DNA of 64,000 nt, from contig JABWCO010000001.1 in the NCBI GenBank assembly GCA_013360185.1, positions 2,560-66,559 on the forward strand. The letters are read 5' to 3'. The notes under the pieces were generated by a model. That model searched no databases. It was not told where the DNA came from and saw only the letters and a program-made list of their open reading frames with translations. The translations under genes were made by a program, and so were the position numbers. The DNA comes from Bdellovibrio sp. GTDB lineage: Bacteria > Bdellovibrionota > Bdellovibrionia > Bdellovibrionales > Bdellovibrionaceae. Shown piece after piece: positions 2,978 through 34,584 of this stretch; within the stretch, counting starts at the first letter, position 1, and every line of letters begins with the position of its first letter.

Positions 2978-5482
2978 TTAGATAAACAAGTGATGAAAGT
3001 TGTGAGACACAAAAGGTTTGTCTTTCACTTTTCCTAGTTCTTCTAGGAAAAGGGTGTGCTCTGGATGGGATTGCTCGAAGACCGAAATATTAATATGTTC
3101 TTCTTTCGTGTAAGCCCCCGCTGTCCAATGCACAATTTGTCTATAATTAATTTGAATCTTAATTTTTGAATTCGCAAAAATACCACAGATAAGATCGTGA
3201 AAAAGAGCCATCTCTTTGTAGTTATTCTGGCTGACGACCATTGAGAATGTCATTTCCTCAATCGTTTCTTGCTTGCTCAAAAAGGCCATGTTTTCAAGAA
3301 GCTTTTCCCACTTACCACCAAGGCGCGTGACATTTTCATAGGTTTCTTTGGTTCCTGCATCGATACTGATTTCGATATTCTTAATGAAATCTCGGGCCTT
3401 TAGGCTGTTCCACATCTTTTCAGTGAGTAAATTTCCATTAGTCACAATTTTAATGCACTCTAGCTTAGGGTATTTTGTGGCATCAAAGTTGATAAGATAA
3501 TTACGAAACAGGCGCGAATAAAATGGATCGCCGCTTCCAGATATAACCATGTTTTTAAGAGAAGAAGATAAATTATTCTCAATAGAATTAAGAAAATAAG
3601 ATTTAAGCTGGTAATCTGCGGACTCTGCCGGAGTGTTATGAACAATGTCTGGACGGCAGGATGGACATTTTAAATTGCAGCTTCGATCAAAGCCGAACAA
3701 AAGAGTTTCAGGAAGTCCGCTGAACTCTTCGGCTTCTTCAGGGGTCGTAACCGCATACTCCTTTTCGATTTGTTCTTTGATCAGAAAGTTTGCTGGAACT
3801 ACGTCAGTGTTGATCAACTGAGACAAAGAGGGACAGACTTTGTGATCACAATGTCTATAAGAACCGTCCATCACCGAACGTCTGACCGCACGGGCATTTT
3901 TTGAACGCCAGTTTTTCAGAAAGTCCTCTGATTGATCAGGTCTATTAAGTCCCGAAGGGTTGTCTTCACTTGTTCTGATGTTTGACGGGCACCAAGATGG
4001 GCAACAAAGCCACTGACTGTCTTCTTGAATGTCCAAGTAAACAAAGGGTTGCGTGCAGACGTATTTGTTAAGTTTCTTTTTTACATTAGAGTCGATGCAG
4101 AATTGCCAGAACTCTTTGAGCTCCGGAAATGTTTCAAGAAAATGAGTGTTACGTCGACGGTCATGCTCAGTAAAAAATTTATAAAAGTCGATTTGCAGGG
4201 TTTGCTTTGTCTCTGGCTTATCTAACTCGTCTTGATCTGACCGGAACCAGTTTACGATTCGCGCCATTTTATCAATTTCAAATGGCAGAAAGCCTCTTTT
4301 ATATTTCTTCGTTTCAGGCAGATATGTTTCAGGATGCGCAACCATATAATCAAGTTGTGCCTGCATATAACTCACAAATTGAGGTGGCAAAATTTTAATG
4401 GTTTGGTGAGATGGGTATCTTAAAAAGGAAATATCAATAAAAACTGGAACCAAACGATCTGGATTGTACAGATGCTCAGTCGACTTAATTTTGATCACTT
4501 CTTCCAGTAATCTTTCGAAAGAAAGCACACTCAGCGCATTATAGGTCGCCATAATCGTCACGTGAGCCCGCGGAACTTGTTCCAAAAGGTCCCACAAACG
4601 CTTGCGCCAAAGTTCGAAGTTCATGCCATGACGTATGTACTCTGCTTGAGGGCCCCAAGCCTCTGCACTGGTGTATATTTCAAGTTTCTTTACGAATTTG
4701 CCGTCAGAAATTTTTTTCAGCTTCAGCAGAAAGTTCTGCCATAATTCTTCCGGTGGACAAAGATTCGTATTGATTGCGAAGACTAAATTTGGATTTGGAT
4801 TTTCTTGGATCCAATCCAGCACTTTATCCAGATCCTTGTTAAGCAGTGGCTCGCCACCGGTAACGCGAAACGTATGAAGGTTTGGATATAAATCTGGCCA
4901 CCACTTCCAGAAGGCCTCGCGAAATGGATTCTCTTGATTTCCTGGAATCGGAGCAAACTCGGGATCTAAGTAAGGGTGATTCCCTGAAGTAGGATAAGTT
5001 CCAAATTTTTTTATCTCCGCCATCCAGGCCGTGCTTACATCGGGACTGCAGTAAGAACATTTAAAGTTGCAGATATCCCCTAAATTTATTTCGACGTAGT
5101 TAGGGGTGAAGTTGGTATCTAAGGGGTTGTTCTTAATCTTCTGATATTCCGGAAGACTCCAAGAAAAACTGCTCTTGATAATTCGATCTGAAATGTTGTC
5201 ACCCGGTGTATCTTCGACACGCCAGCAATAGTTGCATCCTTCAGGCCGCTCCCCTTTAAGCATGGCCTCGCGCTCTTGAATTTTCTGAGGAGTGTTGTGC
5301 AAGACAGCGGGATTCTCCCTTAGCAAATCTAGGGGAATTTTATGGACTTTGGGATGGTGACAAGAGTGAGTGGTCCCATTTTGTAAGTGAATAGATACCT
5401 GCGTCCACTTGGCGAGGCAAAAGCTCGGTGAAACGGCAGACAAGGCTTCTTTAACTTTATCTAGATGCTCACGATTTGACAT
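2978..5482 (-). CDS. Double radical-SAM domain fusion protein (834 aa)
   Basis: Two CX3CX2C motifs: GDICNFKCSYCSP (nt 5048-5071) and DRSCNLKCPSCRP (nt 3656-3679). Each is followed by a Gly-rich SAM motif (VTGGEPLL; ISGSGDPF). A Cys-rich linker spans aa 476-550. Confidence 0.9.
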   Translation of the reverse strand: MSNREHLDKVKEALSAVSPSFCLAKWTQVSIHLQNGTTHSCHHPKVHKIPLDLLRENPAVLHNTPQKIQEREAMLKGERPEGCNYCWRVEDTPGDNISDRIIKSSFSWSLPEYQKIKNNPLDTNFTPNYVEINLGDICNFKCSYCSPDVSTAWMAEIKKFGTYPTSGNHPYLDPEFAPIPGNQENPFREAFWKWWPDLYPNLHTFRVTGGEPLLNKDLDKVLDWIQENPNPNLVFAINTNLCPPEELWQNFLLKLKKISDGKFVKKLEIYTSAEAWGPQAEYIRHGMNFELWRKRLWDLLEQVPRAHVTIMATYNALSVLSFERLLEEVIKIKSTEHLYNPDRLVPVFIDISFLRYPSHQTIKILPPQFVSYMQAQLDYMVAHPETYLPETKKYKRGFLPFEIDKMARIVNWFRSDQDELDKPETKQTLQIDFYKFFTEHDRRRNTHFLETFPELKEFWQFCIDSNVKKKLNKYVCTQPFVYLDIQEDSQWLCCPSWCPSNIRTSEDNPSGLNRPDQSEDFLKNWRSKNARAVRRSVMDGSYRHCDHKVCPSLSQLINTDVVPANFLIKEQIEKEYAVTTPEEAEEFSGLPETLLFGFDRSCNLKCPSCRPDIVHNTPAESADYQLKSYFLNSIENNLSSSLKNMVISGSGDPFYSRLFRNYLINFDATKYPKLECIKIVTNGNLLTEKMWNSLKARDFIKNIEISIDAGTKETYENVTRLGGKWEKLLENMAFLSKQETIEEMTFSMVVSQNNYKEMALFHDLICGIFANSKIKIQINYRQIVHWTAGAYTKEEHINISVFEQSHPEHTLFLEELGKVKDKPFVSHNFHHLFI

Positions 5483-5765: not shown

Positions 5766-5936
5766 GTATGTCAACAGCAACGATGAAACTAAAGTCGAGG
5801 CTCTCGAGAAACTCAAATGGAGTGACTGCCAAATGAGAATTCGCTTGCAGAGAGACTAGGCCAAGGTGGAGTCACCAACAAGTAACAATTGGTAAGTCTA
5901 AGTAGGTATAAGGCTTGCCGCAAATGGAGGTCCCAA

Positions 5937-6770
5937 ATGGGAATGAGAATTTCAACAAACGTGTCCGCTATCAACGCTCAAAGAACTATGATTACTTCTC
6001 AGCGTTCAATTAGTAAATCAATGGAGCAATTATCTTCTGGCTCCAGAATCAACAAAGCAGCTGACGATGCTGCGGGACTAGCGATCAGTGAAAACTTAAA
6101 ATCGCAAGTTCGTTCATTGAGCCAAGCTGGTCGAAATGCCAACGATGGTATCTCAATGGTGCAAACAGCAGAGGGTGGCTTGAGTGAAATTTCAAACATC
6201 TTAACTCGTATGAGAGAACTAGGTGTGCAAGCATCTTCTGATACAGTAGGTGATACAGAGCGTGGCTTCCTTGATAAAGAGGTTCAACAGTTAAAAGCGG
6301 AAGCGCAACGTATTACGCAAACTACTAAATTCGGTACAACTCGACTTCTCGATGGTTCCGGTGACAAATTCGACTACCAAGTGGGTATCGGAAATGATGC
6401 TGAAGCCGACAGAATTTCCTTTAATGCAGGTGAAACTGACGCAACGGTAAGCAGCTTAGGTATCTCAGGTTTTGACTTCTCGTCAAAAGGTGGCGCCCAA
6501 GAGGCTCTTGAGATGGTGGACAAAGCGCAATCGCAAGTGAATGGATATCGCGCTAACTTAGGTGCCTTGCAAAATCGTTTGCAATCGACAGTTGATAACT
6601 TGGGCGTGCAACATGAAAATATTTCTGCTGCAAACTCTCGAATCCGCGACACTGACATTGCGGCGGCTTCAGCTGAATCAACTCGTAACTCGGTATTGTT
6701 GGCAGCGAATACAAGTGTATTGGCACAAGCGAACTCAATGCCAAATGCAGCCTTGAAACTGATTGGTTAA
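5937..6770 (+). CDS. fliC: Flagellin (short, 277 aa)
   Basis: MGMRISTNVSAINAQR, SGSRINKAADDAAGLAISE and the C-terminal ISAANSRIRDTDIAAASAE...LAQANSMPNAALKLIG. GGAGG at 5926-5930 supports the ATG at 5937 rather than the TTG at 5889. Confidence 0.95.
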   Translation: MGMRISTNVSAINAQRTMITSQRSISKSMEQLSSGSRINKAADDAAGLAISENLKSQVRSLSQAGRNANDGISMVQTAEGGLSEISNILTRMRELGVQASSDTVGDTERGFLDKEVQQLKAEAQRITQTTKFGTTRLLDGSGDKFDYQVGIGNDAEADRISFNAGETDATVSSLGISGFDFSSKGGAQEALEMVDKAQSQVNGYRANLGALQNRLQSTVDNLGVQHENISAANSRIRDTDIAAASAESTRNSVLLAANTSVLAQANSMPNAALKLIG

Positions 6771-6908: not shown

Positions 6909-6936
6909 TCAAGTTTCATTGTGAGAATGCCGATAA
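6909..6936 (+). promoter_or_regulatory. Sigma28 (FliA)-type promoter for flaG-fliD-fliS
   Basis: TCAAGTTT (7/8), N12, GCCGATAA (8/8). The -10 element ends 9 nt before the flaG ATG. Confidence 0.7.
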
Positions 6937-6945
6937 ATCCCTTGT

Positions 6946-7320
6946 ATGAATATTAAAGGATTTATCCCTAACATACTTCCCGACACCAAAGTGCGCTCTG
7001 TTGAAGCCACCGGGAAAACTATCAAGTCTGACGAAACCCATGATCGGGACGCTAACGGACAAGAAGCCTTCAGTCAGAATCAAGAACACAACGAGCCCAT
7101 GAGTGAAGAACAGCTCGAAAGAGCCATGGAGCAACTTCGCAATTTACCTTCTACAAAAGAGCATAAATGGACAGTCGACTTAGAGTTTGAGGAAAACGGT
7201 CGTTTTGTTGTTGTCAGAGACAACTTGGGCAATGTGATTCGAAAAATTCCCGAACTGGAACTCTGGTCTTTGCCTTCGGCGGACTCTCCAAGAGGACAGT
7301 TGTTGAAGCGCTCTGCTTAA
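6946..7320 (+). CDS. flaG: FlaG-like flagellar protein
   Basis: Small acidic protein positioned between fliC and fliD. The C-terminal block WTVDLEFEENGRFVVVRDNLGNVIRKIPELELWSL resembles the FlaG family core. Confidence 0.8.
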   Translation: MNIKGFIPNILPDTKVRSVEATGKTIKSDETHDRDANGQEAFSQNQEHNEPMSEEQLERAMEQLRNLPSTKEHKWTVDLEFEENGRFVVVRDNLGNVIRKIPELELWSLPSADSPRGQLLKRSA

Positions 7321-7492: not shown

Positions 7493-8860
7493 ATGGCAGG
7501 AATAAGAATTACAGGCATGGCCTCTGGGCTACCACCAAACATAGTCGAACAGCTCATGGATGCTGAGAAGATTCCTGTGAAACAAATGGAAGCCAGCAAA
7601 GTGAAGCAAGAAGATAAGTTAAAGCTGGTAACAGACCTTGAAACGAAAGTGACAGAGATAACAAAAAATTTAGGTGAGCTGACTTCGAATCAAGGTTTCA
7701 TTGATAAAAAATTTCTGAGTGGTGATCCCAACGTAATTGATGGCCAAGTGGATCCCCAAACCGCTGTGCCGGGTGACTATTCGTTGGAAGTGGTGCAGTT
7801 GGCGCAAAAGCCAGGGGCGATTTCGAATGGATTTCCGGATAAGAACGAAACACAAATTGGTGTGGGGTATATTAAATTTGAAACGAACGAAGGCACTAAA
7901 GAAGTTTATATTAACGGAAAAAGTTCAACTCTTGAGGGAGTGGTAAAACAAATTAATGGTGCCAATGTGGGTTTGACGGCGCAAATTTTGGAAGATCGTA
8001 AAGATAGTGAAAATCCGTTCAAGCTGATGATTTCGGGTTTAGGTACGGGCAAAGACAACCAGGTGCAGTTTCCAAAAATTTACCTTTTGGATGGTGATCA
8101 AGATATGTACTTCGACCAGTCACGCGAAGCGCGTAATGCCAAGGTCAAAGTTAACGGCTTCGAAGTCGAGCTGCCAGAAAATAAAACCACGGATTTAATT
8201 CCGGGTGTGACGCTCGATCTAAAAGCCGCGGCGCCAGGCAGAGAAATCCGCATGAGTGTGAAAGAAAACTTAGAAGTCATCAGTGGCAAAGTGAAAAGCT
8301 TTGTGGATGCCTATAACGGCGCCCTTGAGTTTATTCAGAAGCAAAGCAAAATACAGTCTTCTGATGGGAAGAATCCGCGCTTAGGCCCTTTGGGTGGCGA
8401 TGGAATGTTGCGGTCGGTGGAAAATGCTTTACGTCGGGTGATCTTAAATCCGCAGTTAGGGCTTGAATCACCAATTAAGCGGATTGGGGAATTGGGAATT
8501 GAGTTCAACCGAAACGGTACTTTGAACTTTAGCCAAGACAAATTTAATAAAACCTTGAATGCCAATCCACAGGGCGTAGCGGCCTTTTTTCGGGGCGACG
8601 GTTTTAACACGGGGTTTGTGTCTGGACTAAAAAGAGAAATCGGTAATTTGGTCAATGGGCAGTTTGGTGTGATTTCAAATCGTAAGAAGGGTCTTAACGA
8701 TCGAATTTCCCAAGTAAACAAACGAATTGAAACTAAAGAGCGTCAATTGGAAAGAAAAGAAGAAGGTTTAAGAAGAAAGTTCGCGGACTTGGAGCAAAAG
8801 ATGTCAGATTTGAATTCGCAACAAGCCCGTGTCGCTGCGATGACGCAAAAAGCTGGATAA
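7493..8860 (+). CDS. fliD: Flagellar filament cap protein FliD (hook-associated protein 2)
   Basis: N-terminus MAGIRITGMASGLPPNIVEQLMDAEKIPV is typical of FliD. It has a C-terminal coiled coil and sits before fliS. Confidence 0.9.
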   Translation: MAGIRITGMASGLPPNIVEQLMDAEKIPVKQMEASKVKQEDKLKLVTDLETKVTEITKNLGELTSNQGFIDKKFLSGDPNVIDGQVDPQTAVPGDYSLEVVQLAQKPGAISNGFPDKNETQIGVGYIKFETNEGTKEVYINGKSSTLEGVVKQINGANVGLTAQILEDRKDSENPFKLMISGLGTGKDNQVQFPKIYLLDGDQDMYFDQSREARNAKVKVNGFEVELPENKTTDLIPGVTLDLKAAAPGREIRMSVKENLEVISGKVKSFVDAYNGALEFIQKQSKIQSSDGKNPRLGPLGGDGMLRSVENALRRVILNPQLGLESPIKRIGELGIEFNRNGTLNFSQDKFNKTLNANPQGVAAFFRGDGFNTGFVSGLKREIGNLVNGQFGVISNRKKGLNDRISQVNKRIETKERQLERKEEGLRRKFADLEQKMSDLNSQQARVAAMTQKAG

Positions 8861-8892: not shown

Positions 8893-9294
8893 ATGAATAA
8901 AAACGCATATCAGAAGTATAAAAATACATCCGTGCAAAGTGCCAGTCGAGAGAAAATTCTCTTGATGCTTTACGAGGGTGCAATCAAGTTCACGAAGCTG
9001 GCAATTAAAGCTGCTGAAGAGAAAAAGATTGCGGACCGAGGCATGAATATCGGTCGGGCTTTCGACATTATCATGGAGTTAAATAATACTCTAGATCACA
9101 AAGTCGGCGGTGAGGTCGCTAACCAACTTGAACAGTTATACATGTTCATGATGGAGCAATACACCAAGGGCAATATCACAGGTGATCCAGAACCGCTGCG
9201 CGCCAACTTAAAGCTTCTGCAGACGTTGTATGACGGATGGGTGCAAGCTGTTGAAAAATTTAAAAATGAAAACGCTGACAAAAAAACCGGTTAA
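8893..9294 (+). CDS. fliS: Flagellin export chaperone FliS
   Basis: YQKYKNTSVQSASREKILLMLYEGAIKFTKLA is a FliS-family N-terminus. Length is 133 aa. Confidence 0.9.
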   Translation: MNKNAYQKYKNTSVQSASREKILLMLYEGAIKFTKLAIKAAEEKKIADRGMNIGRAFDIIMELNNTLDHKVGGEVANQLEQLYMFMMEQYTKGNITGDPEPLRANLKLLQTLYDGWVQAVEKFKNENADKKTG

Positions 9295-9311: not shown

Positions 9312-9737
9312 ATGGACAGAATTATTACTTTGCTTAACGAAAAGAATCACTATTTAGAAAAGTTCTATTCTTTGAATGAAACTGAACTGGCAAATTTTGC
9401 GCAGGGGCAGTTTGATAACTTGGAACATTTCTATCAAACCCGTGAACATATTCTAGGCGTTCTAAAATATGTCGACGCACAAATCGCAAAATTTCAGGAT
9501 GAAAACTCTGAAGTCGCAGTGATCAACGACATCGTTCGTCGAGAAATTAAAGAAGCTTTATCAATCAAAGATGAGTACGTCATGCGTATTATTGAGCAAG
9601 ACATTCAAGTGCTTTCGTGTATTGAGTTAGCCAAGAATTCAATTATCAAAGAACTGCAAGATGTTCGGCATAACCGCAAAGTCGTCAGCAGCTATAAATC
9701 TAAAACGTTTAATCAGCGTTTAAACGAAGAGGTCTAG
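9312..9737 (+). CDS. Hypothetical helical protein in the post-fliS position (possible FliT/FlgN-like chaperone)
   Basis: The ORF follows fliS directly. GGAGGGG precedes the ATG at 9312, while an alternative ATG at 9294 overlaps the fliS stop. The functional guess rests on position only. Confidence 0.55.
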   Translation: MDRIITLLNEKNHYLEKFYSLNETELANFAQGQFDNLEHFYQTREHILGVLKYVDAQIAKFQDENSEVAVINDIVRREIKEALSIKDEYVMRIIEQDIQVLSCIELAKNSIIKELQDVRHNRKVVSSYKSKTFNQRLNEEV

Positions 9738-9835
9738 GAAAAATTTTCCTGACAAAAACCTGACGGCAAGTTCGCTGAAAGAGTCAAACTCCTGGCTGAA
9801 CTTGCCTCAAATCAAATAAAACAGGAAACGACCTG

Positions 9836-9851
9836 TGGCATCTGTGTTGCT
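9836..9851 (+). promoter_or_regulatory. Sigma54 (RpoN)-type -24/-12 promoter
   Basis: TGGCAT-N5-TTGCT with exact GG-to-GC spacing. It is followed by GAGGAG (9866-9871) and the ATG at 9882. Confidence 0.65.
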
Positions 9852-9881
9852 CTTCAGAAAAGTCTGAGGAGACAAAATCAG

Positions 9882-10937
9882 ATGTTAGATAACCAGATTG
9901 TGCAAAAGTCCAGTGACGTCAACGAACCGCATTTAGGACCTATCGAAGTTCCAGCTCAAGAAAAAATAAAAGTATACTTTGATCCCCAGCAAGCAATTGC
10001 CGACTTCGATGCCGACGTGCAGGTGAGTGAAGCTCCGGCACCGATCGTTGATATTCGTTTGGCTTCTTATCTAAAGAATGCGCGTTTGCTTATGAAGCAT
10101 AGAGAATATTCTTTAGCGCTGAATATCCTCCGTCAGGCTTGCAATCGTGATTCGCGTCATCCTGTGACGTTGGGGCTTTTGGCAACTTGCCTTGAAACGA
10201 CCTCGCGCCATCAAGAGGCATTAATCGCTCGCCGTGCTTTGGTTGATATTGAATACGGGTTTGCAAATCTCTTCAGATACGCCACGGCTCTTTATAAGTT
10301 AGGTAAAGATCAAGAAGCTTTGGATAAGTACTATGAGGCTTTGGCCGTCCTTAAAGAAGAAAATGAGTCCCTTTTTGAAACCTATAAAAACATGGGTAAC
10401 ATCTTTGTACGTCAAGGCGACTTTGACGCTGCTGAAGAGTACTATAATAAAGCCTACACGATGAATCCAAAGTCTGACGTACTGCTTGTCAATTTGGGCA
10501 CTCTTGAGGTGCAACGTAATGATTTTGATAAGTCTTTGTACTGTTTTAGAAACGCCGTTGCCATCAATCCACAAAACGACAAAGCCTGGGTGGGACTGGC
10601 CATGGTTCATAATCACTTTGGTGATAATGAACTGGCGTGGGCGAATATTGAGTCGGCGGTGGATATCAATCCAAAAAATCGAACAGCCGTGCATCTGGCA
10701 GCAAACTGGGGTTTGCGTGACGGCAGAACTCAGAAGTCGATCGAGTTCTTACAAAGCTATTTAGGTTCCGTGGAAGAAGATGAGGACATGTCCTTGGTGC
10801 TTATTAATTTATTCTGCACACTAGGTCATGTTGACAAAGCTCTTCTAGAGATGGAGCGGGTTCTTCTGTGGAATCCACGTCATTCTGAAGTTCGCAGCTT
10901 AAAAAAGAAAATTCTTGATTCGCAAAAGGTGGCGTAA
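9882..10937 (+). CDS. Tetratricopeptide (TPR) repeat protein
   Basis: Repeated 34-aa TPR-like units, for example YKNMGNIFVRQGDFDAAEEYYNKAYTMNPKS, LVNLGTLEVQRNDFDKSLYCFRNAVAINPQN and AWVGLAMVHNHFGDNELAWANIESAVDINPKN. Confidence 0.85.
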   Translation: MLDNQIVQKSSDVNEPHLGPIEVPAQEKIKVYFDPQQAIADFDADVQVSEAPAPIVDIRLASYLKNARLLMKHREYSLALNILRQACNRDSRHPVTLGLLATCLETTSRHQEALIARRALVDIEYGFANLFRYATALYKLGKDQEALDKYYEALAVLKEENESLFETYKNMGNIFVRQGDFDAAEEYYNKAYTMNPKSDVLLVNLGTLEVQRNDFDKSLYCFRNAVAINPQNDKAWVGLAMVHNHFGDNELAWANIESAVDINPKNRTAVHLAANWGLRDGRTQKSIEFLQSYLGSVEEDEDMSLVLINLFCTLGHVDKALLEMERVLLWNPRHSEVRSLKKKILDSQKVA

Positions 10938-10938
10938 G

Positions 10939-11550
10939 ATGTCGATGATTACATTTTCGGAAAATCACGAGGGATCCTTGGTGGCTTTCGAGGCGGGTGC
11001 GGAACTCGCGTCCCTGCGGGACCCGCGCGGTGAAGCTTTGAAGTGGGTCTACTCTTTGGGGGTGATTCCTTCGCAACAAGTGGTAGTCGTGGGCCTGGGT
11101 TCAGGTTTTCACGTAGCTGCTTTGGCAGATCTTGACGAAAATCTAAAGATTACCGTAATTGAATCCCGTGAATCGTTGATTCCAGTTTTTCGTTCGCAGT
11201 TTCCCGAGATTGCCGAGCGTATTGAAGTTGTGATCGCGCAGACCGCTCAGGATATTTTTAAAACGGACGTTTTTCAGGAAGTTATGAGTGGTCAACCTTA
11301 TGTTCTGTCGTGCCGTGAATGCTGGGGACAACAAGGGAATTTATTCTCAGAGTTATTTGCTCATCTTACCGGGCGCTCTGCGGAATCCGTGCGCTATCAT
11401 TTTGACGAGTTTGGCATCAATATGAAAGCCCTTTATTTTCATCCCAAACAAATGCTTTCGGTAAAGGACGTGATTCCTGTTGTCGAAGCTTCGCTGATGG
11501 CAGAAAAGCAAAAGCAAATCTTTAGAGTGCTCGCAGAGCTGGTGAAATAA
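10939..11550 (+). CDS. Rossmann-fold GxGxG protein (SAM-methyltransferase-like or Maf/MptE-like), function unknown
   Basis: VVVVGLGSGFHVAALADL is followed by the acidic beta2 end KITVIESR. The ATG lies immediately after the TPR stop, and the stop overlaps the next ATG (TAATG). Confidence 0.7.
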   Translation: MSMITFSENHEGSLVAFEAGAELASLRDPRGEALKWVYSLGVIPSQQVVVVGLGSGFHVAALADLDENLKITVIESRESLIPVFRSQFPEIAERIEVVIAQTAQDIFKTDVFQEVMSGQPYVLSCRECWGQQGNLFSELFAHLTGRSAESVRYHFDEFGINMKALYFHPKQMLSVKDVIPVVEASLMAEKQKQIFRVLAELVK

Positions 11551-13127
11551 TGAAGATCTTAGTTTTGTCTTTGCTTCGTTTGGGTGACATCATTCAACAA
11601 GAGCCACTGCTGCGTGGTTTGCGTCAGAAAAATCCGCAAGCAGAAATTCATTTGTTGATAAATAAACAATTCGCAAATATCGAACGCATTTTTGAGGGCG
11701 TGGTCGACAAATATATTTATTTTGATCGGACTTCTTTGCAGCAAGGCCTCGGAGAAGCGGCTTACAATATCTTGTGGTCGTATAAGCAGCTTGAAAAGCT
11801 GATTGCTGACTTAGATGGCGAGCACTACGACAAAGCCATTAATTTGACCCATAACAAATTGAGCGCTTATCTTTTGGGAACTTTAGAAATTCCCGAAAAA
11901 CGTGGCCTGTATCAGCAAGACGGGCGTTTTCAGGGATTGAATAATCGGTGGATTCGCTATTTTAATGATCGCTTTTCTGGCAATCAGAAATCCTTATTCC
12001 ATTATGTCGAGTTGTTAGGAAAAGGTTTTGATATTCCTGTGCAAGCGGTCGAGCGAGCACCAGTAAAAAAACGTAGCAAACTTGTTTTGTTGCAGTGTCT
12101 TACCAGCAGCGAGAAAAAAGACTGGGGTCTAGAACGATTTAAACAATTAAAGCGCACTATCGAAATCGCTTTAGTCGATTACGAAGTGTGTATCTTGGGG
12201 GCGTCTTTTGAACGGGATACCCTGTTGTCCGTTTTTTCGGAAGGTGACTTGTTGATTTGTGATTTGGCGGAAGCGCGTAAGCATTTGCATAATGCGGCAT
12301 TGTTGATTACCGGCGACACTAGCATAAAGCACATCGCCGCCCAAGTCGGAACACCAATCGTCGAAATCGTGATCGGCAGCAGCGACGTCTCAAAAACAGC
12401 GGCCTTTGCGGCAAGGTCTATCGCGGTGCAAACGCAAGTGCCTTGTGCACCATGCAGTCATTCTGGCAAGTGCACGCAGGCAAGTCATCTGTGTGCCGAG
12501 GACGTGACGATAGAAAAAGTCTTTGGCGCAGTGTGGGATCAGCTGAGTGGCGAAAAAATCGCTAGCCGAAAAATCGTCAACAGCCTAGAGCGGGCCGTCT
12601 GGACAATCTATTTAGACAAAAACAATGCAGCCGCCCAGCCATTTTATCGGGCCACGGCGGAAGAGTTCTTAACTGAAAATTCTCCGGAATCTTTACAGGC
12701 TTCGCTGCCGGCTTGGAATGAACAAACTGCAATTTATCGTGCCTGGATTGTGAAAGCCCATGCGGCATTGCCGACCCGTGATTTTTTGGCGACGCACAAG
12801 ACCTTTCAAGCGTCGGATATAGCGGAGTTAGTTTTGTTAGCGCAAGACATTCTGCGTTCCAAAAAAGACGAGGCGGGATATTTCCAGTATTTTGTCGAAG
12901 CCTTGCTGTCTCGGTTCAGTCAGCCGGTGCAAATATATGATCGGGTTTTTAAAGCTCTTCAGGATGTCGAAGAGCTGATTAGTGTGCGTGAGGAATTTAC
13001 TCAACATCTGCAAATGCTCTCTCAGGAAGGTGTGTACTATGCAAAAGGAATTGGACAATTATCTATCAGCGGCTTTGAAGAAGTTAGAAAAGGCGTACAG
13101 CGAGATCTTGAGGACGCAGGGATATAG
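11550..13127 (+). CDS. GT9 (heptosyltransferase-family) glycosyltransferase with C-terminal extension, 525 aa
   Basis: N-terminus MKILVLSLLRLGDIIQQEPLLRGLRQKNPQAEIHLL is typical of ADP-heptose heptosyltransferases. GDTSIKHIAAQVGTP is present. It has a four-Cys cluster at aa 299-315 and a helical tail of about 190 aa. Confidence 0.85.
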   Translation: MKILVLSLLRLGDIIQQEPLLRGLRQKNPQAEIHLLINKQFANIERIFEGVVDKYIYFDRTSLQQGLGEAAYNILWSYKQLEKLIADLDGEHYDKAINLTHNKLSAYLLGTLEIPEKRGLYQQDGRFQGLNNRWIRYFNDRFSGNQKSLFHYVELLGKGFDIPVQAVERAPVKKRSKLVLLQCLTSSEKKDWGLERFKQLKRTIEIALVDYEVCILGASFERDTLLSVFSEGDLLICDLAEARKHLHNAALLITGDTSIKHIAAQVGTPIVEIVIGSSDVSKTAAFAARSIAVQTQVPCAPCSHSGKCTQASHLCAEDVTIEKVFGAVWDQLSGEKIASRKIVNSLERAVWTIYLDKNNAAAQPFYRATAEEFLTENSPESLQASLPAWNEQTAIYRAWIVKAHAALPTRDFLATHKTFQASDIAELVLLAQDILRSKKDEAGYFQYFVEALLSRFSQPVQIYDRVFKALQDVEELISVREEFTQHLQMLSQEGVYYAKGIGQLSISGFEEVRKGVQRDLEDAGI

Positions 13128-13183
13128 CCAAGAAGCCGAAAGAGTGCAGCTGTTAAAAGAACTCGTAAAGGAACAAGTGAAAA

Positions 13184-14644
13184 ATGAAAATTCTAGTAAT
13201 TCAACTCGCTAGACTTGGCGATATCTTTATGACTTGGCCTGCGTTGCGTGCCTTGAAGCGCTCCCATCCTCAGGCCGAAATTCACTTATTAACTCGCCCA
13301 CGTTTTGGCGCGGCGGTCGAAGGGTTGACGGCGGTGGATCGTCACATCTCTTTGCCGGTAAGTACTATTCTTGCCCCCTTGGTGCAAGACGAGGCGGATT
13401 TCGATACGTCGTTAGAGCGTTTAAATGAAACGGTCGACATGTTAGTCGCGGAAAATTACGACACCGTGGTGAATCTGACCTTTTCGCCGGTATCGAGCTA
13501 TTTGACTCACGCGGTGAGCGGTTTACACACGACGGTTTTGGGTTATACGCGCTATAACGATGGCACTTTGTGTTTGGCTGATGAGGTCAGTTCTTATTTT
13601 TACGCACAGGTGGGACCTGAACGTGCCAATCGGGTGCATCTGGCTGACATCTTTGCATCAATGCTAAATGTTGAATACATAGAGCAGGATTGGCTCGCTC
13701 CAGTATTGGCGGAACCCAGCTTTGCATTGCCGGATTGTTACATGGCTTTGCATGTCGGCGCCAGTGAACAGCATAAATCTTTAAGTCCTCAAGCTTGGGG
13801 TCGTACGCTGGCATATTTTAACCGTCGCTATCAAGGTTTGCCAATCGTCTTAATCGGGGCTGCGGGCGAGGCCTCGTTAGCCGAAGAAATCATCAAGGCG
13901 GCTCCGCAGGCAGCGATCATTAACATGGTTGGTAAGACCACAGTTTCCGAACTTTTTTCCGTGGTTCAAGAAGCAGAAATTCTTGTAGGTTGTGACAGTG
14001 CGCCGATTCATATGGCGTCATTAACAGACACGCCGACGCTGAATGTATCTGTCGGCAAAGTGAATTACTGGGAAACCGGCCCGAAGGCGACGCTGGGTTT
14101 TATCTATCGCATTGAAAACGAAGAAAAACTTGTGACTGAACGCTTAGGGGAAGTCTTGGCTTTGCTCCTGGAAGGCGAAGTGGCTTCAGAGCTGATCCCA
14201 CGTGCCGCGGGGTTAGTCAGTTATGCGCAGAATGATTTTGGCATAGAGGCTTTCCAGTGGGGCATGGTTCAGGCCCTGTATCTAGGAGGCCCTTATCCCA
14301 TCGCAGACAGAATGGAAATCATTCAAGGGGCTGCGAAGTTGCAAGATATAAATAATTTTGCAATGGAACAAATCGCCTTAATACCTGAAAAGGGTCTTCA
14401 GGCCATCGGACCTTTGTTGGACAGTGCGGAAGAAGTTATTCAAAATATTAGCCGAGTTGTACCGGAATTGAGTCCTCTTATTAACTGGTACCAAGCGGAA
14501 AAAATTCGCATTGGTCCAGGGTCGCTTGAGGAGATCTGTGCGACAGCTTTGAGTATTCACCAACGTTTAGCCCGCCATGTGGAGGCTTACGTTCCTCATG
14601 ACGCCTTAATTCAATCAGAGGAGGCGCTCGATGGAACGCTTTAA
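13184..14644 (+). CDS. GT9 (heptosyltransferase-family) glycosyltransferase paralogue with C-terminal extension, 486 aa
   Basis: N-terminus MKILVIQLARLGDIFMTWPALRALKRSHPQAEIHLL. GCDSAPIHMASLTDTP is present. It has a tail of about 150 aa and no Cys cluster. Confidence 0.85.
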   Translation: MKILVIQLARLGDIFMTWPALRALKRSHPQAEIHLLTRPRFGAAVEGLTAVDRHISLPVSTILAPLVQDEADFDTSLERLNETVDMLVAENYDTVVNLTFSPVSSYLTHAVSGLHTTVLGYTRYNDGTLCLADEVSSYFYAQVGPERANRVHLADIFASMLNVEYIEQDWLAPVLAEPSFALPDCYMALHVGASEQHKSLSPQAWGRTLAYFNRRYQGLPIVLIGAAGEASLAEEIIKAAPQAAIINMVGKTTVSELFSVVQEAEILVGCDSAPIHMASLTDTPTLNVSVGKVNYWETGPKATLGFIYRIENEEKLVTERLGEVLALLLEGEVASELIPRAAGLVSYAQNDFGIEAFQWGMVQALYLGGPYPIADRMEIIQGAAKLQDINNFAMEQIALIPEKGLQAIGPLLDSAEEVIQNISRVVPELSPLINWYQAEKIRIGPGSLEEICATALSIHQRLARHVEAYVPHDALIQSEEALDGTL

Positions 14645-15314
14645 AGTCAGCGGAGAAGATCTGCGCAATTTTTATCAAGACAATATCGAACTTAAAAGAG
14701 TTTTTAGCGATATCGAGCGCGATCTGCGCTCTGAAAACCAAGTGGTGTGTCGTTATATCGTTAACGGCATGGAAGTGGCCGAGTCCGAAGAGGTGCGCTT
14801 TTCCACGGTCAAACTGTCTGACATCGAAACCTTGGAATACGTAACTGAAAACAGTCGCGATATCACCTCGATCGTTTTGAAGGGGTGGATTGAGGCCTTG
14901 CCGGAATTAATTCAACAAACTGAAAATCTTTCGAAGCGTATGCGGGCTCAGGGCTTTTCGGGCTTGTTTAAGGCCATTCACGATTTGGTGCAAAACTGCG
15001 AATATCTGATCGACAGTACGATCACGATTAAAGCGATGATGGGCGATCAATTCCAAGGGTCTGGTCCTGTCGATTGGTACAAAGCCGAAGAGGCCAGCAA
15101 AAAAACTGTGACCGAGGCGTTACGCGCTTTGGAAAATAAGGATTTTATTCTTTTAGCGGATGTCCTAGAGTATGATTTGAACAATGTCTTGCAGATGTGG
15201 TTGGATCACCTGCGAGTCGTGGAGAAGTCGCTTCATGGGGAATACGCCGGGCCTAATATCAATGCCGAACAAGCTGGATCCTATTCTATGGGTAGGAAAC
15301 GTATCGCCAATTAG
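14631..15314 (+). CDS. Hypothetical protein (227 aa)
   Basis: The ATG overlaps the GT9 paralogue stop by 14 nt, which suggests translational coupling. I recognised no motif. Confidence 0.65.
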   Translation: MERFKVSGEDLRNFYQDNIELKRVFSDIERDLRSENQVVCRYIVNGMEVAESEEVRFSTVKLSDIETLEYVTENSRDITSIVLKGWIEALPELIQQTENLSKRMRAQGFSGLFKAIHDLVQNCEYLIDSTITIKAMMGDQFQGSGPVDWYKAEEASKKTVTEALRALENKDFILLADVLEYDLNNVLQMWLDHLRVVEKSLHGEYAGPNINAEQAGSYSMGRKRIAN

Positions 15315-17271
15315 ACTGCCCCATTTTTTTCCTTTCCAAAAACGGGAAGTGGAAATTGTTTTTAGGGCCTCCTGCGCAGAGGCCCTTTCGCTTTTAAAGA
15401 CCCAAAAGTTTTCCTCGATCTTAGTCCAGGACCCTCGCGCGGAAGACCGCCTGGAGTTCCTGGTACAGGCTCGCCTTTATCAGCCAATCGCGCCGCGAAT
15501 TTTAATTGCGGAAGATTTATCTGAACAAGAAGTCCGAGAGGGTATCAACAAAGCCCAGGTATTCCGGTTCATGCGGTGGCCTTTAAGTGAGCGAGAAGTC
15601 TGGGCGCAGCTAGAGAGCGCCTTGCAAAAGCATTCCATGTACCTGTCGCGCTCCCTGTTGTTGCGTGAATCGTCCCATCAAAACAAACAACTAGAAGCCC
15701 TCACGCATTCTTTAGAGGGCATGGTTGAAGAACGCACTCAGTTCATTGAGCTTTCCCATAACGAAGAAAGTGAAAAATTGAATCGCGAACGACTGCTGGT
15801 GCGATTTATCAAAGATCTTGGCACACAAAATTCATTTGAAGACATCTTGGGCGTTTTGCGCAAAGAGCTGCGTAAATTTCATAAGATGGGGGACCCGATT
15901 TTGGCCTACCGCTTAGGTGGAGGAAAAACTTTTTTTCTAAGTTTTCATTCGGGCCACTTCAATCAAACTGATACTTTATCCTATTTTGAGTTTCCGAAAA
16001 CGGCGGAAGTTCCCTCGCCCGAACTGATTCGTTATTTTGCCAATCATTTTGGTCGTCCGTTTATTCGCGCTTACGCCGTCCCGTTAGAACTGCGTCTGAC
16101 CAGCCATTTGGTCGGCGACGAAGGTGAAGCGATTTTGTGTATTGAAAATTCTTTGTCTGATAAAGAAATGACTCCGTTCATTGATTTTATGACGGATCGC
16201 ATGCGTCCTCTCAGCATGGCATTGGACCGTGTGCTTTTGGAAAGTCAGCTTTCAAGTTTTTCTTATCGTTGGGAAAAGACTTTTGATGGTATGCGCGACC
16301 CGGTGGCGATTGTGGACCTAGAATACAATGTTGTAAGGGCCAACCGAAAATTTTCTGATAAGTTTTTTCAACAAAAGTGCTTTGAAAGCTTTGCCCATAA
16401 AAAATCGCAGTGTGAAGGGTGCCCTGTACCCACCGCCTTGAAAGAGGGTGTCACTGCGAGCGGTCAAATCCAAGTCGATGGGCGCGTATATCAGGTGCAC
16501 AGCTATCCCGTACTTCTTGAACATGGCGCTCGTCCGACAAATATTGTGAATCAATATGTGGATATCACGCAGTCGCGAGAGCTTTATCTGCGCATGTTGC
16601 AGAATGAAAAAATGGGCGCCATCGGTATGCTGGCCGGGAACATTGCGCATGAATTAAACAATCCATTGACGGGCTTGAGGGCTTTGACCCAGGTTCTGTT
16701 GCAGGAAGTGACGGACGAAGGAAATTTGCGCGCGGATTTGATTGAAATCGAAAAAGCCACGGCGCGATCACAAAGAATTATCAAAAATCTTTTAGATTTT
16801 TCCAAGGGCGAAGATCAGCCATCGGAGTATATCAGTGTTGATGAAGTGATCGAAAGAACCTTGCCAATGTTAAAATCAGCATTGCGGCAACATCGTTTGG
16901 AAGTGGACCTAAAAACTTTGGGGCACAGCGTTTTTGTTGAGCCTCATTTATTGCAGCAGGTGGTATTCAATCTGATTAACAATGCCTGTCAGGCGATGAA
17001 GGATCCCGGGCGTTTGCGTGTTGAAACCGAGGTCCGTGCTAATCAGGTTTTAATTCGCATTGAGGACACGGGGCCAGGAATCCCCGAAGATATTCAACGC
17101 CGCATCTTTGAACCCTTCTTTACGACAAAAAAAGAAGGACATGGGACGGGTCTTGGGTTAAGTATGTCTAAGTCCATCATTGAAAAATTTGGCGGCACAA
17201 TTCAGTTCCAAAACGTGGAACCTCAGGGCTGTTGTTTCACGATCGTGCTGCCTACGAAAAGTTCGGAGTAA
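15235..17271 (+). CDS. Sensor histidine kinase with degenerate N-terminal receiver-like domain and PAS domain
   Basis: H-box HELNNPLTGL, N-box NLINNACQAM, G1 EDTGPGIP, G2 GTGLGLS. The start is ambiguous (15184, 15235 or 15262); GGAGA precedes 15235. Confidence 0.85.
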   Translation: MGNTPGLISMPNKLDPILWVGNVSPIRLPHFFPFQKREVEIVFRASCAEALSLLKTQKFSSILVQDPRAEDRLEFLVQARLYQPIAPRILIAEDLSEQEVREGINKAQVFRFMRWPLSEREVWAQLESALQKHSMYLSRSLLLRESSHQNKQLEALTHSLEGMVEERTQFIELSHNEESEKLNRERLLVRFIKDLGTQNSFEDILGVLRKELRKFHKMGDPILAYRLGGGKTFFLSFHSGHFNQTDTLSYFEFPKTAEVPSPELIRYFANHFGRPFIRAYAVPLELRLTSHLVGDEGEAILCIENSLSDKEMTPFIDFMTDRMRPLSMALDRVLLESQLSSFSYRWEKTFDGMRDPVAIVDLEYNVVRANRKFSDKFFQQKCFESFAHKKSQCEGCPVPTALKEGVTASGQIQVDGRVYQVHSYPVLLEHGARPTNIVNQYVDITQSRELYLRMLQNEKMGAIGMLAGNIAHELNNPLTGLRALTQVLLQEVTDEGNLRADLIEIEKATARSQRIIKNLLDFSKGEDQPSEYISVDEVIERTLPMLKSALRQHRLEVDLKTLGHSVFVEPHLLQQVVFNLINNACQAMKDPGRLRVETEVRANQVLIRIEDTGPGIPEDIQRRIFEPFFTTKKEGHGTGLGLSMSKSIIEKFGGTIQFQNVEPQGCCFTIVLPTKSSE

Positions 17272-17274
17272 CTT

Positions 17275-17628
17275 TTGAAAGTTCTAATCGTTGATGATGA
17301 AACCCTGGTGCGACGCTCACTGTCTCGAGCGTTAAAAAGCAAGGGTTATGAGGTGCAAGAAGCCGTGAACGGCACTGAAGGTTTACAACTTTGGCGTTCG
17401 TGGCATCCTGATTTAGTTTTTTTAGACGTCTTAATGCCAGGTATGACCGGGCCCGAGGTTTTAAAAGAAATCGGTAACGACAACAAAGCCAAAGTGATTT
17501 TGATGTCGGCCTTTTCCGGAGAACACAACATGCAGACGGCCCAACAAATGGGTGCCAGTCATTTTGTGCCAAAACCTTTTGAAGACATTTTCGCCGTCGT
17601 AAAAATGGCGGAGGATATGTTGGTATGA
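17275..17628 (+). CDS. Single-domain response regulator (CheY-like receiver)
   Basis: KVLIVDDE...DLVFLDVLMPGMTG...VILMSA...FVPKPF. TTG start with GGAG 6 nt upstream. Confidence 0.9.
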   Translation: MKVLIVDDETLVRRSLSRALKSKGYEVQEAVNGTEGLQLWRSWHPDLVFLDVLMPGMTGPEVLKEIGNDNKAKVILMSAFSGEHNMQTAQQMGASHFVPKPFEDIFAVVKMAEDMLV

Positions 17629-18203
17629 GAATTATAGCAGGAAAATATCGTGGACATCAGTTGGTCGCTTTCAAGGCCGATCACATTCGTCCGACCACGG
17701 ATCGAGTCAAAGAAACACTTTTCAACAAATTACAGTTTTATCTTGAGGGCGCCAAAGTCGTGGATCTTTTTTGCGGCACGGGCAACTTAGGGATTGAAGC
17801 GCTGTCGCGGGATGCAAGCTTTTGCACCTTCGTCGAAAAGAATCCAAAGTCTTTAGCAATCACACGCCAGAATTTGGACAAACTGAAAGTTCCCAAAGAT
17901 CAATATAAAATCATCAATATGGATGTGGTGGCCTATCTGAAATCCTATACCGGTGAATCCTTTGATGTAATTTTGGCAGATCCTCCCTTTACGGAAAAAA
18001 TGGCCCATGACGTAATGATGGCGGCCAGTCAATCTGCCGGGTTTGGTCCGCAAACTGTGATGGCGATTGAGTCTGAACAGAAAGAGCGCATGGATGAACA
18101 TTATGGTTCCATCGTGCGCTACAATCAAAAAGACTATGGCGATAAATTTTTAAATCTGTTCTGTCATGAAAGTGCTTTGCAAGAAGGTGAAGGCGATGAG
18201 TAG
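17625..18203 (+). CDS. rsmD: 16S rRNA (guanine966-N2)-methyltransferase RsmD
   Basis: MRIIAGKYRGHQL...IRPTTDRVKETLFN, GTGNLGIEALSRDA and ADPPF. Confidence 0.9.
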   Translation: MRIIAGKYRGHQLVAFKADHIRPTTDRVKETLFNKLQFYLEGAKVVDLFCGTGNLGIEALSRDASFCTFVEKNPKSLAITRQNLDKLKVPKDQYKIINMDVVAYLKSYTGESFDVILADPPFTEKMAHDVMMAASQSAGFGPQTVMAIESEQKERMDEHYGSIVRYNQKDYGDKFLNLFCHESALQEGEGDE

Positions 18204-18678
18204 AGTAGCAGTATATCCAGGCAGCTTTGATCCGATCACTTCAGGGCACGTTGATATTATCAATCGCATCGCACGCCAATACGACCAAGTGATTGTGTTG
18301 GTCGCGCAATCTTCACAGAAGAGTTCTATGTTTTCGGCTGAAGAACGTAAGTCTTTGATAGAAAAGTCCTTATCGCACTTACAAAATGTCAAAGTGGATA
18401 TTTTTGGCGGCCTGACTGTGGACTATATGAAAAAGGCCAACTCTAAAGTTATTATCCGCGGTTTGCGTGCCGTGGTGGATTTTGAATACGAGCTTACGAT
18501 GGCGAATATGAATCGCAAGATCGCGCCAGAAATCGAAACTCTTTTGGTTTTCGCCAGCCCCGAGTTTTATTATGTCTCGTCCCGCGGGGTCAAAGAGTTG
18601 GCTTTAAATAATGGCCCTTTAAAAGACCTGGTTCCAGAATGCGTGATTAAAGCCTTAGATGAAAAAATTAAGAAATAG
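18196..18678 (+). CDS. coaD: Phosphopantetheine adenylyltransferase
   Basis: VAVYPGSFDPITSGHVDIINR. The ATG at 18196 overlaps the rsmD end. Confidence 0.9.
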   Translation: MSRVAVYPGSFDPITSGHVDIINRIARQYDQVIVLVAQSSQKSSMFSAEERKSLIEKSLSHLQNVKVDIFGGLTVDYMKKANSKVIIRGLRAVVDFEYELTMANMNRKIAPEIETLLVFASPEFYYVSSRGVKELALNNGPLKDLVPECVIKALDEKIKK

Positions 18679-33873: not shown

Positions 33874-34497
33874 TTATTCGCAGTAATAAGCATCTTTTCT
33901 TAAGAACGCTTTGCACGAGTTTGAGCTGCAGTAGTAGGCGTCATTTCTGATGAAGGCTTTGCAGTCTCCGGAATCACAGTAATAGGCGTCGTTTCTGATG
34001 AAGGCTTTGCAATCTCCTGAGTCACAGTAATAGGCGTCGTTCCTGATAAAAGCCTTACAATCACCAGTGTCGCAGTAATAGGCATCGTTTCTAATAAAGG
34101 CCTTACAGTCTCCAGATTCACAGTAATAAGCGTCTTTTTTGGCAAAGGCTTTGCAATCCGCAGACTCACAATAATAAGAATCTTTTTTAAGTAATGCTTT
34201 TACGTCACTAGAGTCTGCGTAATAAAAGTCATTTCTGGTCAGAGCCTTACAGTCTCCAGATTCACAGTAATAGCTGTCTTCTTTGACCAGGCCCTTGCAG
34301 TCGGCAGAGCTTAGTTGCGAATTAAAACTGACAGTTGTCTTGTTGGTAAAATCCAAAAGGTTTGTTTGAATCAGATACTGTTTGCTGAACTCTACCTGCT
34401 GGTAAATCGACGCACCTTGTGCCGCACCTGAGTTCAAGATGAAAGCTAACAATGTAAAGGCAAAATATTTTTGGGTGAGCATTTTTAAGTTTCTCAT
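33874..34497 (-). CDS. Secreted protein built of nine tandem 16-residue two-cysteine repeats
   Basis: AAGGAG lies 6 nt before the ATG at 34497. Signal peptide LLAFILNSGAAQGAS. Repeat unit CKAFIRNDAYYCDSGD. Confidence 0.8.
   Translation of the reverse strand: MRNLKMLTQKYFAFTLLAFILNSGAAQGASIYQQVEFSKQYLIQTNLLDFTNKTTVSFNSQLSSADCKGLVKEDSYYCESGDCKALTRNDFYYADSSDVKALLKKDSYYCESADCKAFAKKDAYYCESGDCKAFIRNDAYYCDTGDCKAFIRNDAYYCDSGDCKAFIRNDAYYCDSGDCKAFIRNDAYYCSSNSCKAFLRKDAYYCE
33877..34299 (-). repeat. 48-bp tandem coding repeat (about 9 units)
   Basis: Period-48 units encode C-K-A-(F/L)-x-(R/K)-(N/K)-D-(A/S/F)-Y-Y-C-(D/E/S)-(S/T)-(G/A/N)-(D/S). Units differ mainly at synonymous sites. Confidence 0.9.
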
Positions 34498-34584
34498 GCT
34501 GGGCTCCTTAGTTGTAACTGGTTGCAATTGAACACCAGTGATTACTTTTGCAAAGCCCGCGCCAACAATTTTTGAATACTCGCG

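Follow-up and report, generated by a model that had tools for sequence, protein, structure and literature searches.

WaaC (heptosyltransferase I, HepI) and WaaF (HepII) are enzymes of CAZy family GT9 that act in lipopolysaccharide (LPS) synthesis. Mutagenesis of heptosyltransferase I has defined D13 as the catalytic base and K192 and D261 as donor-site residues (PMC5713226), and positively charged loops in the N-domain are described in a review of LPS heptosyltransferases. TibC, a protein heptosyltransferase of the BAHT family, combines an N-terminal β-barrel and a β-hairpin thumb with an iron finger (Cys339/342/358/370) in the C-lobe that is needed for oligomerisation and substrate recognition (PMC4358343). 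The flagellin O-glycosyltransferase FlmG of Caulobacter crescentus has an architecture of tetratricopeptide repeats (TPR) plus a GT-B glycosyltransferase domain (PMC7591256). GT9 genes also occur next to flagellin genes in variable region 1 of enterobacterial flag-2 loci, where a role in flagellin glycosylation has been predicted, not shown (De Maayer et al. 2020, PMC6993521). Here we describe a gene cluster with two GT9-like genes, GT9-A and GT9-B, that lies directly behind the flagellar filament genes in a 64-kb stretch of contig JABWCO010000001.1 of Bdellovibrio sp. (assembly GCA_013360185.1). This stretch is called the window, and its coordinates count from its first letter. The closest matches to its proteins are metagenomic sequences at 89–92% identity, and the named relatives all belong to Bdellovibrio. 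Our best guess, a tentative one, is that GT9-A and GT9-B glycosylate a protein, probably a flagellar one.

The elements of the cluster, all on the forward strand, are as follows.

9836–9851, forward: σ54 (−24/−12) promoter, TGGCATCTGTGTTGCT (TGGCAT-N5-TTGCT), 31 nucleotides before the ATG of the TPR gene
9882–10937, forward: TPR protein, 351 residues
10939–11550, forward: Rossmann protein with a GxGxG motif, 203 residues
11550–13127, forward: GT9-A, 525 residues, sharing a TAATG overlap with the Rossmann reading frame
12444–12494, forward: Cys4 knuckle of GT9-A, C299-x2-C302-x5-C308-x6-C315
13184–14644, forward: GT9-B, 486 residues
14631–15314, forward: p227, 227 residues, overlapping GT9-B by 14 nucleotides
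15262–17271, forward: histidine kinase, start codon uncertain, in an open reading frame (ORF) that opens at 15184
17275–17628, forward: stand-alone CheY/DivK-like receiver, 117 residues

The reading frames are tightly packed behind a 144-bp gap (9738–9881) that precedes the TPR gene, as the preliminary description of this DNA had reported; every overlap it listed is present. The Rossmann ATG (10939) lies one base past the TPR stop codon. The kinase frame overlaps the end of p227 by 50–130 nucleotides, depending on the start codon chosen, and the receiver stop codon overlaps the start of rsmD, beyond which the dense arrangement continues through coaD to an aminotransferase gene. The overlapping frames of GT9-B with p227 and of p227 with the kinase suggest translational coupling. 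A scan for intrinsic terminators or σ70 promoters that might split the operon returned no more sites than shuffled sequence, so these candidates were rejected; one GC-rich hairpin with a T-rich run (15364–15386) lies inside the kinase reading frame.

Both GT9-like proteins belong to the family by sequence and, for GT9-A, by modelled fold. Against a gathering score of 22 for the Pfam GT9 family (PF01075), GT9-A reaches 50.3 bits (E 2.7e-13) and GT9-B 35.3 bits (E 9.7e-9), and the two share the N-terminal start MKILV(L/I)xLxRLGD...AEIHLL from which their GT9 identity was originally proposed; that assignment is now supported by the profile scores as well. Their GT-B cores of heptosyltransferase type, residues 1 to ~336 in GT9-A and 1 to ~333 in GT9-B, are homologous to each other (hhalign probability 99.6%, 22% identity over residues 1–336 and 1–333). 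An AlphaFold model of GT9-A, based on a 74-sequence alignment, has a predicted local distance difference test score (pLDDT) of 86 and a predicted template-modelling score of 0.80, and opens directly with a Rossmann strand (residues 2–7). Among solved structures, Foldseek places it closest to WaaF (1psw), WaaC (6dfe, 2h1h and 2gt1) and the Veillonella GT9 protein 3tov, with E ~1e-13 and template-modelling (TM) scores to target of 0.65–0.72 for 1psw, 6dfe, 3tov and 2h1h. As modelled, GT9-A has the two-Rossmann GT-B fold of the solved GT9 structures.

The catalytic apparatus of heptosyltransferases appears intact in both proteins. When GT9-A and GT9-B are aligned with E. coli WaaC and WaaF, the WaaC positions D13, K192, D261 and H266 are invariant and E222 is nearly so. 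The GT9-A residues that match WaaC D13, K192, E222, D261 and H266, namely D13, K190, E221, D256 and H261, are kept in 68–70 of 70 orthologues, and D13, K198, E229 and D271 of GT9-B are kept in all 79 of its orthologues. This conservation of catalytic and donor-binding residues spans 70–79 sequences with identities as low as 24–36%, and because the residues are near-invariant across orthologues, GT9-A and GT9-B look like active enzymes. GT9-B is the most conserved protein of the cluster. Its orthologues have a constant length (480–510 residues) and many invariant residues outside the catalytic set.

The two enzymes differ from characterised LPS heptosyltransferases in score and in surface charge. 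Against the NCBIfam models for LPS heptosyltransferases I, II and III (TIGR02193, TIGR02195 and TIGR02201), the best matches score 47–55 bits, about one third of the cut-offs of 134.6–185.3. The net charge of the acceptor-binding N-domain is +7 in WaaC and +5 in WaaF, compared with +2 in GT9-A (orthologue median +1.5) and −10 in GT9-B (median −6), and GT9-B as a whole carries a charge of −28. A basic acceptor domain of the kind suited to anionic Kdo2-lipid A therefore appears to be clearly missing in GT9-B and borderline in GT9-A.

Each enzyme also carries a C-terminal extension. E. coli WaaC (319 residues) and WaaF (348 residues) stop where the extra 150–190 residues of GT9-A and GT9-B start, which confirms extensions of the size first described. 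In the GT9-A model, the tail consists of a helical domain (residues 342–502) followed by a disordered end, in agreement with the helical character assigned to it earlier. The tail is variable, since GT9-A orthologues range from 357 to 593 residues in length. The GT9-B tail, ~150 residues encoded by nucleotides 14183–14641, is conserved. Homology between the two tails was considered and rejected, as hhalign aligns the cores only. GT9-A has a further addition, the Cys4 knuckle, which sits in the C-lobe as an insertion ahead of the last core helix. Of 70 GT9-A sequences, 68 keep all four cysteines and two lack the loop. The alignment places a cysteine-free insertion of WaaF at this position, and GT9-B has no Cys4 motif. 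The knuckle is probably a structural metal site.

The TGGCAT-N5-TTGCT motif ahead of the TPR gene is the sole exact match to TGGCAY-N5-TTGCW in the window, against a chance expectation that we estimate at ~0.1 per 64 kb; with one mismatch allowed there are 10 matches, and 5.4 are expected. A GAGGAG ribosome-binding site lies between the motif and the TPR start. The genome of B. bacteriovorus HD100 contains a gene for an RpoN-like sigma factor, bd0843 (PMC3464611). Among the 64 loci that hold both the TPR gene and the FliT-like gene found directly after fliS, 57 have TGGCA-N6-TTGC upstream of the TPR ORF, mostly 25–70 nucleotides before the called start, and three more have the variant TGGTAC...TTGCT. 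The consensus of 61 anchored promoters is tTGGCAtctgtGTTGCTctt, with a variable spacer and unconserved flanks. Because the −24/−12 elements are kept in 57–60 of 64 loci while spacer and flanks vary, and because the genus has rpoN, we take the motif, by its form and its conservation, to be a real σ54 promoter, which supports the earlier suggestion of σ54 control. No gene for an enhancer-binding protein was found among the window ORFs scanned.

The neighbouring filament genes appear to follow a different regime. The gene flaG is preceded by a σ28-like promoter candidate, CAAG-N15-GCCGATAA (window 6910–6936, forward strand), that lies 10 nucleotides upstream of its start and has no second match of its type in the window (expected number of matches 0.05); the TPR–GT9 operon therefore seems to be regulated differently from the adjacent late filament genes. 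In some distant loci, an extra gene of ~1.4 kb separates the FliT-like and TPR genes, and there the σ54 motif stays beside the TPR gene. This extra gene, seen in ~12 distant loci, encodes a lipoprotein-like product of ~400 residues with a CxxCH haem-binding motif (YCIECHTRT) and no Pfam match. Examples between the FliT-like and TPR genes are the following.

L036:5244–6437, extra gene
L041:5493–6686, extra gene
L047:5797–7053, extra gene
L059:6013–7254, extra gene

A second σ54-like motif in the window, TGGCGCGGGCTTTGCA (34549–34564, reverse strand, one mismatch), occupies a short gap upstream of a 217-residue YdjO-like ORF (33874–34527, reverse strand) and directly downstream of a PilZ-domain gene (34585–35262, reverse strand).

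The cluster is conserved across the Bdellovibrionales. In a survey that scanned one genome per species, 194 GT9-B relatives were detected, and the best 80 of the 194 loci were kept. Nearly all of the 80 are titled Bdellovibrionota, and metagenome bins with other labels share the same gene order. The order fliC-flaG-fliD-fliS-FliT-like-TPR-Rossmann-GT9A-GT9B-p227-kinase-receiver-rsmD-coaD-aminotransferase recurs in nearly all loci, down to a GT9-B identity of 36%. The cluster sits directly 3' of fliS and the FliT-like gene in 64 loci, which are almost all of those whose upstream sequence is long enough, so the question raised in the preliminary description, whether orthologues are linked to flagellar genes, is answered positively. 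Glycosyltransferase genes lying beside flagellar filament genes, the arrangement that characterises flagellin glycosylation islands, are thus found in the window and in about 64 loci. The TPR gene was found in 65 loci and p227 follows GT9-B in 74 of 80. In essentially all loci that extend far enough, the kinase gene comes next after p227 or, in the absence of p227, next after GT9-B, and the position of the receiver is likewise conserved.

Departures from this order are few. In a Pseudobdellovibrionaceae clade that includes Bdellovibrio sp. HCB337 (L025–L030), p227 is absent, GT9-B is followed directly by the kinase, and GT9-A is short (405–417 residues). A tie between loss of p227 and a short-tailed GT9-A holds in these loci and was rejected in general, because other lineages with a short GT9-A retain p227. 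Three loci that retain p227, L055, L060 and L080, have GT9-B, p227 and kinase in series and no σ54 motif immediately upstream. In L080 the trio is preceded by purK and purE, and in L060 a flagellin gene lies ~7 kb downstream of it. A further departure is found in B. bacteriovorus strain kdesi (NZ_CP102930.1, L068:10001–11480). Relative to strain Bd5, with DNA identity of 87–88% on both sides, a ~1.7-kb deletion fuses GT9-A residues 1–200 to GT9-B residues 220–486 out of frame. If the assembly is correct, this strain would be a natural double knock-out of GT9-A and GT9-B, and both genes would be dispensable in culture.

The proteins encoded around the two enzymes include three lineage-specific partners, among them a candidate adaptor. 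The TPR protein matches many TPR families in Pfam (E down to 3e-22) and has only sub-threshold matches to named TPR equivalogs in NCBIfam. Reading the sequence by eye, with no predictor used, reveals no evident signal peptide or membrane segment. The protein is probably cytoplasmic and is a candidate adaptor for binding a partner or substrate.

In the Rossmann protein, a GxGxG motif is accompanied by an FRxxW motif and by an acidic residue behind strand 2, both of them conserved. Its AlphaFold model (pLDDT 87) shows a short Rossmann fold with an N-terminal β-hairpin, and the Foldseek matches are to spermidine synthases and class I S-adenosylmethionine (SAM) methyltransferases, weak at E ~1e-4 and TM ~0.4. 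Its Pfam matches, to RrnaAD, Methyltransf_25 and Maf_flag10_N, are all sub-threshold. A profile search of 1.84 billion representative proteins returned 419 clusters, of which the best 150 listed are all 76–229 residues long, and the three members that bear an organism name belong to the Bdellovibrionaceae or Pseudobdellovibrionaceae. The protein is best described, from its model, as a putative truncated fold of the class I methyltransferase or spermidine synthase type that is specific to the lineage. An N-terminal pattern of the form DPxxEA..W ... GLGxGxH raised the idea of a relative of the Maf N-terminus. This was rejected, as Pfam gives sub-threshold matches only: Maf_flag10_N matches the GxGxG region in four of 12 orthologues with a best E of 0.003, and the window protein scores 13.9 bits against a cut-off of 23.5. 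Maf structures are absent from the PDB profile matches of the Rossmann protein and from the 50 Foldseek matches listed.

The p227 protein carries a conserved LADxxEYEL motif. Searches of Pfam, NCBIfam and the PDB gave no match for it, and neither a profile built from its orthologues and run against the PDB nor Pfam searches with 12 of these orthologues changed this. The kinase matches HATPase_c (1.7e-28), HisKA (9e-12) and PAS_4 in Pfam, and its PAS segment is cysteine-rich (C-x10-C-x2-C). Inspection of the sequence by eye indicates an N-terminal receiver-like region and no evident membrane segment, so the histidine kinase is probably soluble. The receiver matches Response_reg (1.2e-27).

These observations can be combined into a working model of protein glycosylation. 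GT9-A and GT9-B would work in the cytoplasm with a nucleotide-activated donor sugar, most likely ADP-heptose, whose synthesis genes would lie elsewhere in the genome. They would transfer it to a protein instead of the LPS inner core. Flagellin or another substrate of flagellar export is the most probable candidate, and the TPR protein and the helical tails would supply acceptor recognition. The two enzymes may act in sequence, with one priming and the other extending the glycan, or on different sites. Control by σ54 would place production of the enzymes within the flagellar assembly programme, ahead of the neighbouring σ28-type late genes. A flagellar acceptor is favoured because the cluster adjoins the filament genes, is under σ54 control and includes a TPR partner reminiscent of FlmG, and because flagellin-adjacent GT9 genes of flag-2 loci have a predicted role of this kind. 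The apparent dispensability of both genes in strain kdesi is also in keeping with the model. Three points give indirect support to an acceptor other than LPS: the NCBIfam scores lie below threshold, GT9-B has an acidic acceptor domain, and the TPR partner is probably soluble. A more elaborate version of the model is possible but doubtful. In it, the Bdellovibrionales would have repurposed LPS-type GT9 enzymes as a multi-part cytoplasmic machine, with a TPR adaptor, helical recognition domains and a Cys4 module, that heptosylates flagellin or another export substrate under σ54 control and is coupled through p227 to the soluble kinase and the CheY-like receiver.

Several observations weigh against a flagellar protein acceptor. 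That an acidic, soluble GT9-B would be a poor fit for an anionic, membrane-bound glycolipid is inferred from charge only. The structures closest to GT9-A are those of the LPS enzymes WaaF and WaaC, not that of the protein heptosyltransferase TibC, which is absent from the PDB profile matches of GT9-A (E up to 10) and from the 50 Foldseek matches listed. No nucleotide-sugar synthesis genes were found within the 64-kb window, a caveat already attached to the first proposal. The conserved block also carries rsmD, coaD and the aminotransferase gene; with housekeeping genes in the same frozen block, linkage alone says little about function, and the flagellar neighbourhood may reflect history and not function. 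In L055, L060 and L080, moreover, the GT9-B, p227 and kinase genes occur without the TPR, Rossmann and GT9-A genes and without adjacent flagellar genes. The literature searched contains no report of glycosylated Bdellovibrio flagellin. It also yielded no paper on the genes downstream of fliS (Bd0612) in HD100, none linking GT9 with flagellin and none on heptose in Bdellovibrio LPS.

The alternative that survives best, although unlikely, is that GT9-A and GT9-B are the LPS inner-core heptosyltransferases of the lineage, a pair similar to HepI and HepII, or that they make a variant LPS for the flagellar sheath. The tails and partner proteins would then serve localisation or regulation, and the flagellar neighbourhood would be incidental or related to the sheath. 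This alternative accounts for the GT9 membership, the full heptosyltransferase catalytic set and the fold matches to WaaF and WaaC. The arrangement of the genes also fits: coaD shares a transcript with the LPS gene waaA in E. coli, and the adjacent GT9 paralogues with coaD downstream recall the waaF-waaC and waaA-coaD arrangements of that species, another point that counts against a protein acceptor. The kdesi deletion is compatible with an LPS role as well, because E. coli waaC and waaF mutants are viable. The flagellum of Bdellovibrio is sheathed, and the LPS of the sheath differs from that of the cell body (PMC7175336), which suits a dedicated sheath LPS. What makes the LPS alternative unlikely is that both proteins score far below all NCBIfam heptosyltransferase cut-offs and that their acceptor domains are acidic or near neutral rather than basic as in WaaC and WaaF. 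Furthermore, the extra domains, the σ54 promoter, the soluble TPR partner and the kinase and receiver pair are foreign to waa operons.

A second alternative, less likely still, is that GT9-B and p227 form a functional unit with the soluble PAS kinase and the CheY-like receiver. In this case a regulatory or polar protein would be the acceptor instead of one from the filament, and GT9-B would modify a signalling protein or report nucleotide-sugar status to one. The linkage of GT9-B, p227 and kinase is the most persistent one in the cluster, surviving in the three loci that lack the other genes, and the overlapping frames suggest coupled translation. The constraint on GT9-B, with its constant length and its many invariant non-catalytic residues, points the same way. 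On the other side, p227 is missing in L025–L030, though GT9-B and the kinase are still adjacent there, and the adjacency is perhaps inherited synteny. To our knowledge, no two-component protein has been described as the target of a GT9 enzyme. Finally, it is very improbable that GT9-A, GT9-B or both are pseudoenzymes, scaffolds that would bind a nucleotide sugar or another protein but transfer no sugar. The long non-catalytic tails and the low similarity to characterised enzymes would suit this reading, as would the variable tail of GT9-A together with its Cys4 module, since a module of this kind serves oligomerisation in TibC. Against it, the catalytic base and donor residues are conserved almost completely in both paralogues.

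The genes upstream of the cluster, called in the order given in the preliminary description, and their positions are as follows.

1951–2775: fliC, first of the two flagellin genes in the window
2978–5482, reverse: radical-SAM gene, 834 residues, between the two flagellin genes
5889–6770: fliC, second flagellin gene
6946–7320: flaG
7493–8860: fliD
8893–9294: fliS
9312–9737, forward: candidate FliT/FlgN-like chaperone gene, last gene of the fliD-fliS unit

The FliT/FlgN-like ORF encodes 147 residues from its first ATG and 141 from Met7, and its orthologues, which directly follow fliS in 64 loci, mostly have 139–141. It has weak Pfam matches to FliT (E 7.5e-5) and FlgN. In the 834-residue protein encoded between the flagellin genes, the radical-SAM domain is confined to residues 601–758 near the C-terminus, and the large N-terminal region has no Pfam match. 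On the downstream side, rsmD and coaD (17625–18678, forward strand) follow the receiver with overlapping frames, and co-transcription of these housekeeping genes with the cluster is possible. Further along, a 312-residue protein (23401–24339, forward strand) contains DUF2802 and DUF6115. DUF2802 is found in flagellar and chemotaxis gene clusters of other bacteria, and its presence suggests that more motility-related genes lie a few kilobases downstream.

The kinds of component in the cluster are already known: GT9 enzymes, TPR repeats, the Rossmann fold and a σ54 promoter. The two tails, the Cys4 insertion, the Rossmann family, p227 and the combination of genes appear to be uncharacterised and, as far as seen, confined to the Bdellovibrionota. 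If the acceptor is a flagellar protein, the cluster would represent a new enzyme class for flagellar glycosylation, with GT9 enzymes acting on protein independently of the Maf, FlmG, GT2 and TibC families, and would offer a defined set of genes with which to study why the subunits of a sheathed flagellum need to be modified. Should it prove to be a heptosylation machine, protein O-heptosylation would have arisen a second time, independently of BAHT and for the first time in a flagellar setting. With LPS as the acceptor, the synthesis of core or sheath LPS would be under σ54 control, beside flagellar filament genes, in a predator with an unusual outer membrane and an unusual sheath. Either way, the cluster contains four order-wide protein families without an assigned function (the two tails, the Rossmann protein and p227), and the apparent natural double knock-out in strain kdesi makes the acceptor question directly testable.

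Compared with known systems, the cluster is closest to WaaC and WaaF in its enzymes. It shares with them the GT9 family, the GT-B fold, the catalytic D13, K192 and D261 together with E222 and H266, and the presence of two adjacent paralogues, as in waaF-waaC of E. coli. GT9-A and GT9-B differ from WaaC and WaaF in having only 14–22% identity to them, scores below the NCBIfam equivalog cut-offs, 150–190 extra C-terminal residues, a Cys4 insertion (GT9-A) and an acidic or neutral acceptor domain. They also differ in lying beside fliD-fliS in a σ54 operon with TPR, methyltransferase-like, p227 and two-component genes.

The BAHT enzymes TibC and AAH are likewise GT-B enzymes resembling heptosyltransferases, and they glycosylate proteins in the cytoplasm. 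TibC has its Cys4 finger in the C-lobe at a position comparable to that of the GT9-A knuckle, a likeness by analogy only. GT9-A lacks the N-terminal β-barrel and the β-hairpin thumb, GT9-B lacks the Cys4 motif, and no autotransporter substrate gene lies nearby. Kinship of GT9-A with TibC through the Cys4 motif was rejected, as TibC is missing both from the PDB profile matches and from the 50 Foldseek matches listed, and the analogy with BAHT drawn in the first account of the locus is backed by neither kind of match, the best structures being those of WaaF and WaaC.

Like FlmG, on which the preliminary description modelled its proposal, the cluster associates TPR repeats with a GT-B glycosyltransferase in a flagellar gene context, a likeness of architecture. 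In the Bdellovibrio cluster, the TPR protein and the enzymes are separate polypeptides, the enzymes are of the GT9 type, and no genes for pseudaminic acid or another sugar pathway lie near. The resemblance to Maf (MAF_flag10/DUF115) is limited to the weak Maf_flag10_N match in the GxGxG region of the Rossmann protein. Maf proteins have 600 residues or more, far above the size of the 150 listed Rossmann relatives, and no MAF_flag10 catalytic domain occurs anywhere in the cluster. The flag-2 loci, likened here by description, share the presence of GT9-family genes beside flagellin genes. They are variable, strain-specific islands of a secondary flagellar system, whereas the Bdellovibrio cluster is conserved across the order, has extra domains and is preceded by its own σ54 promoter.

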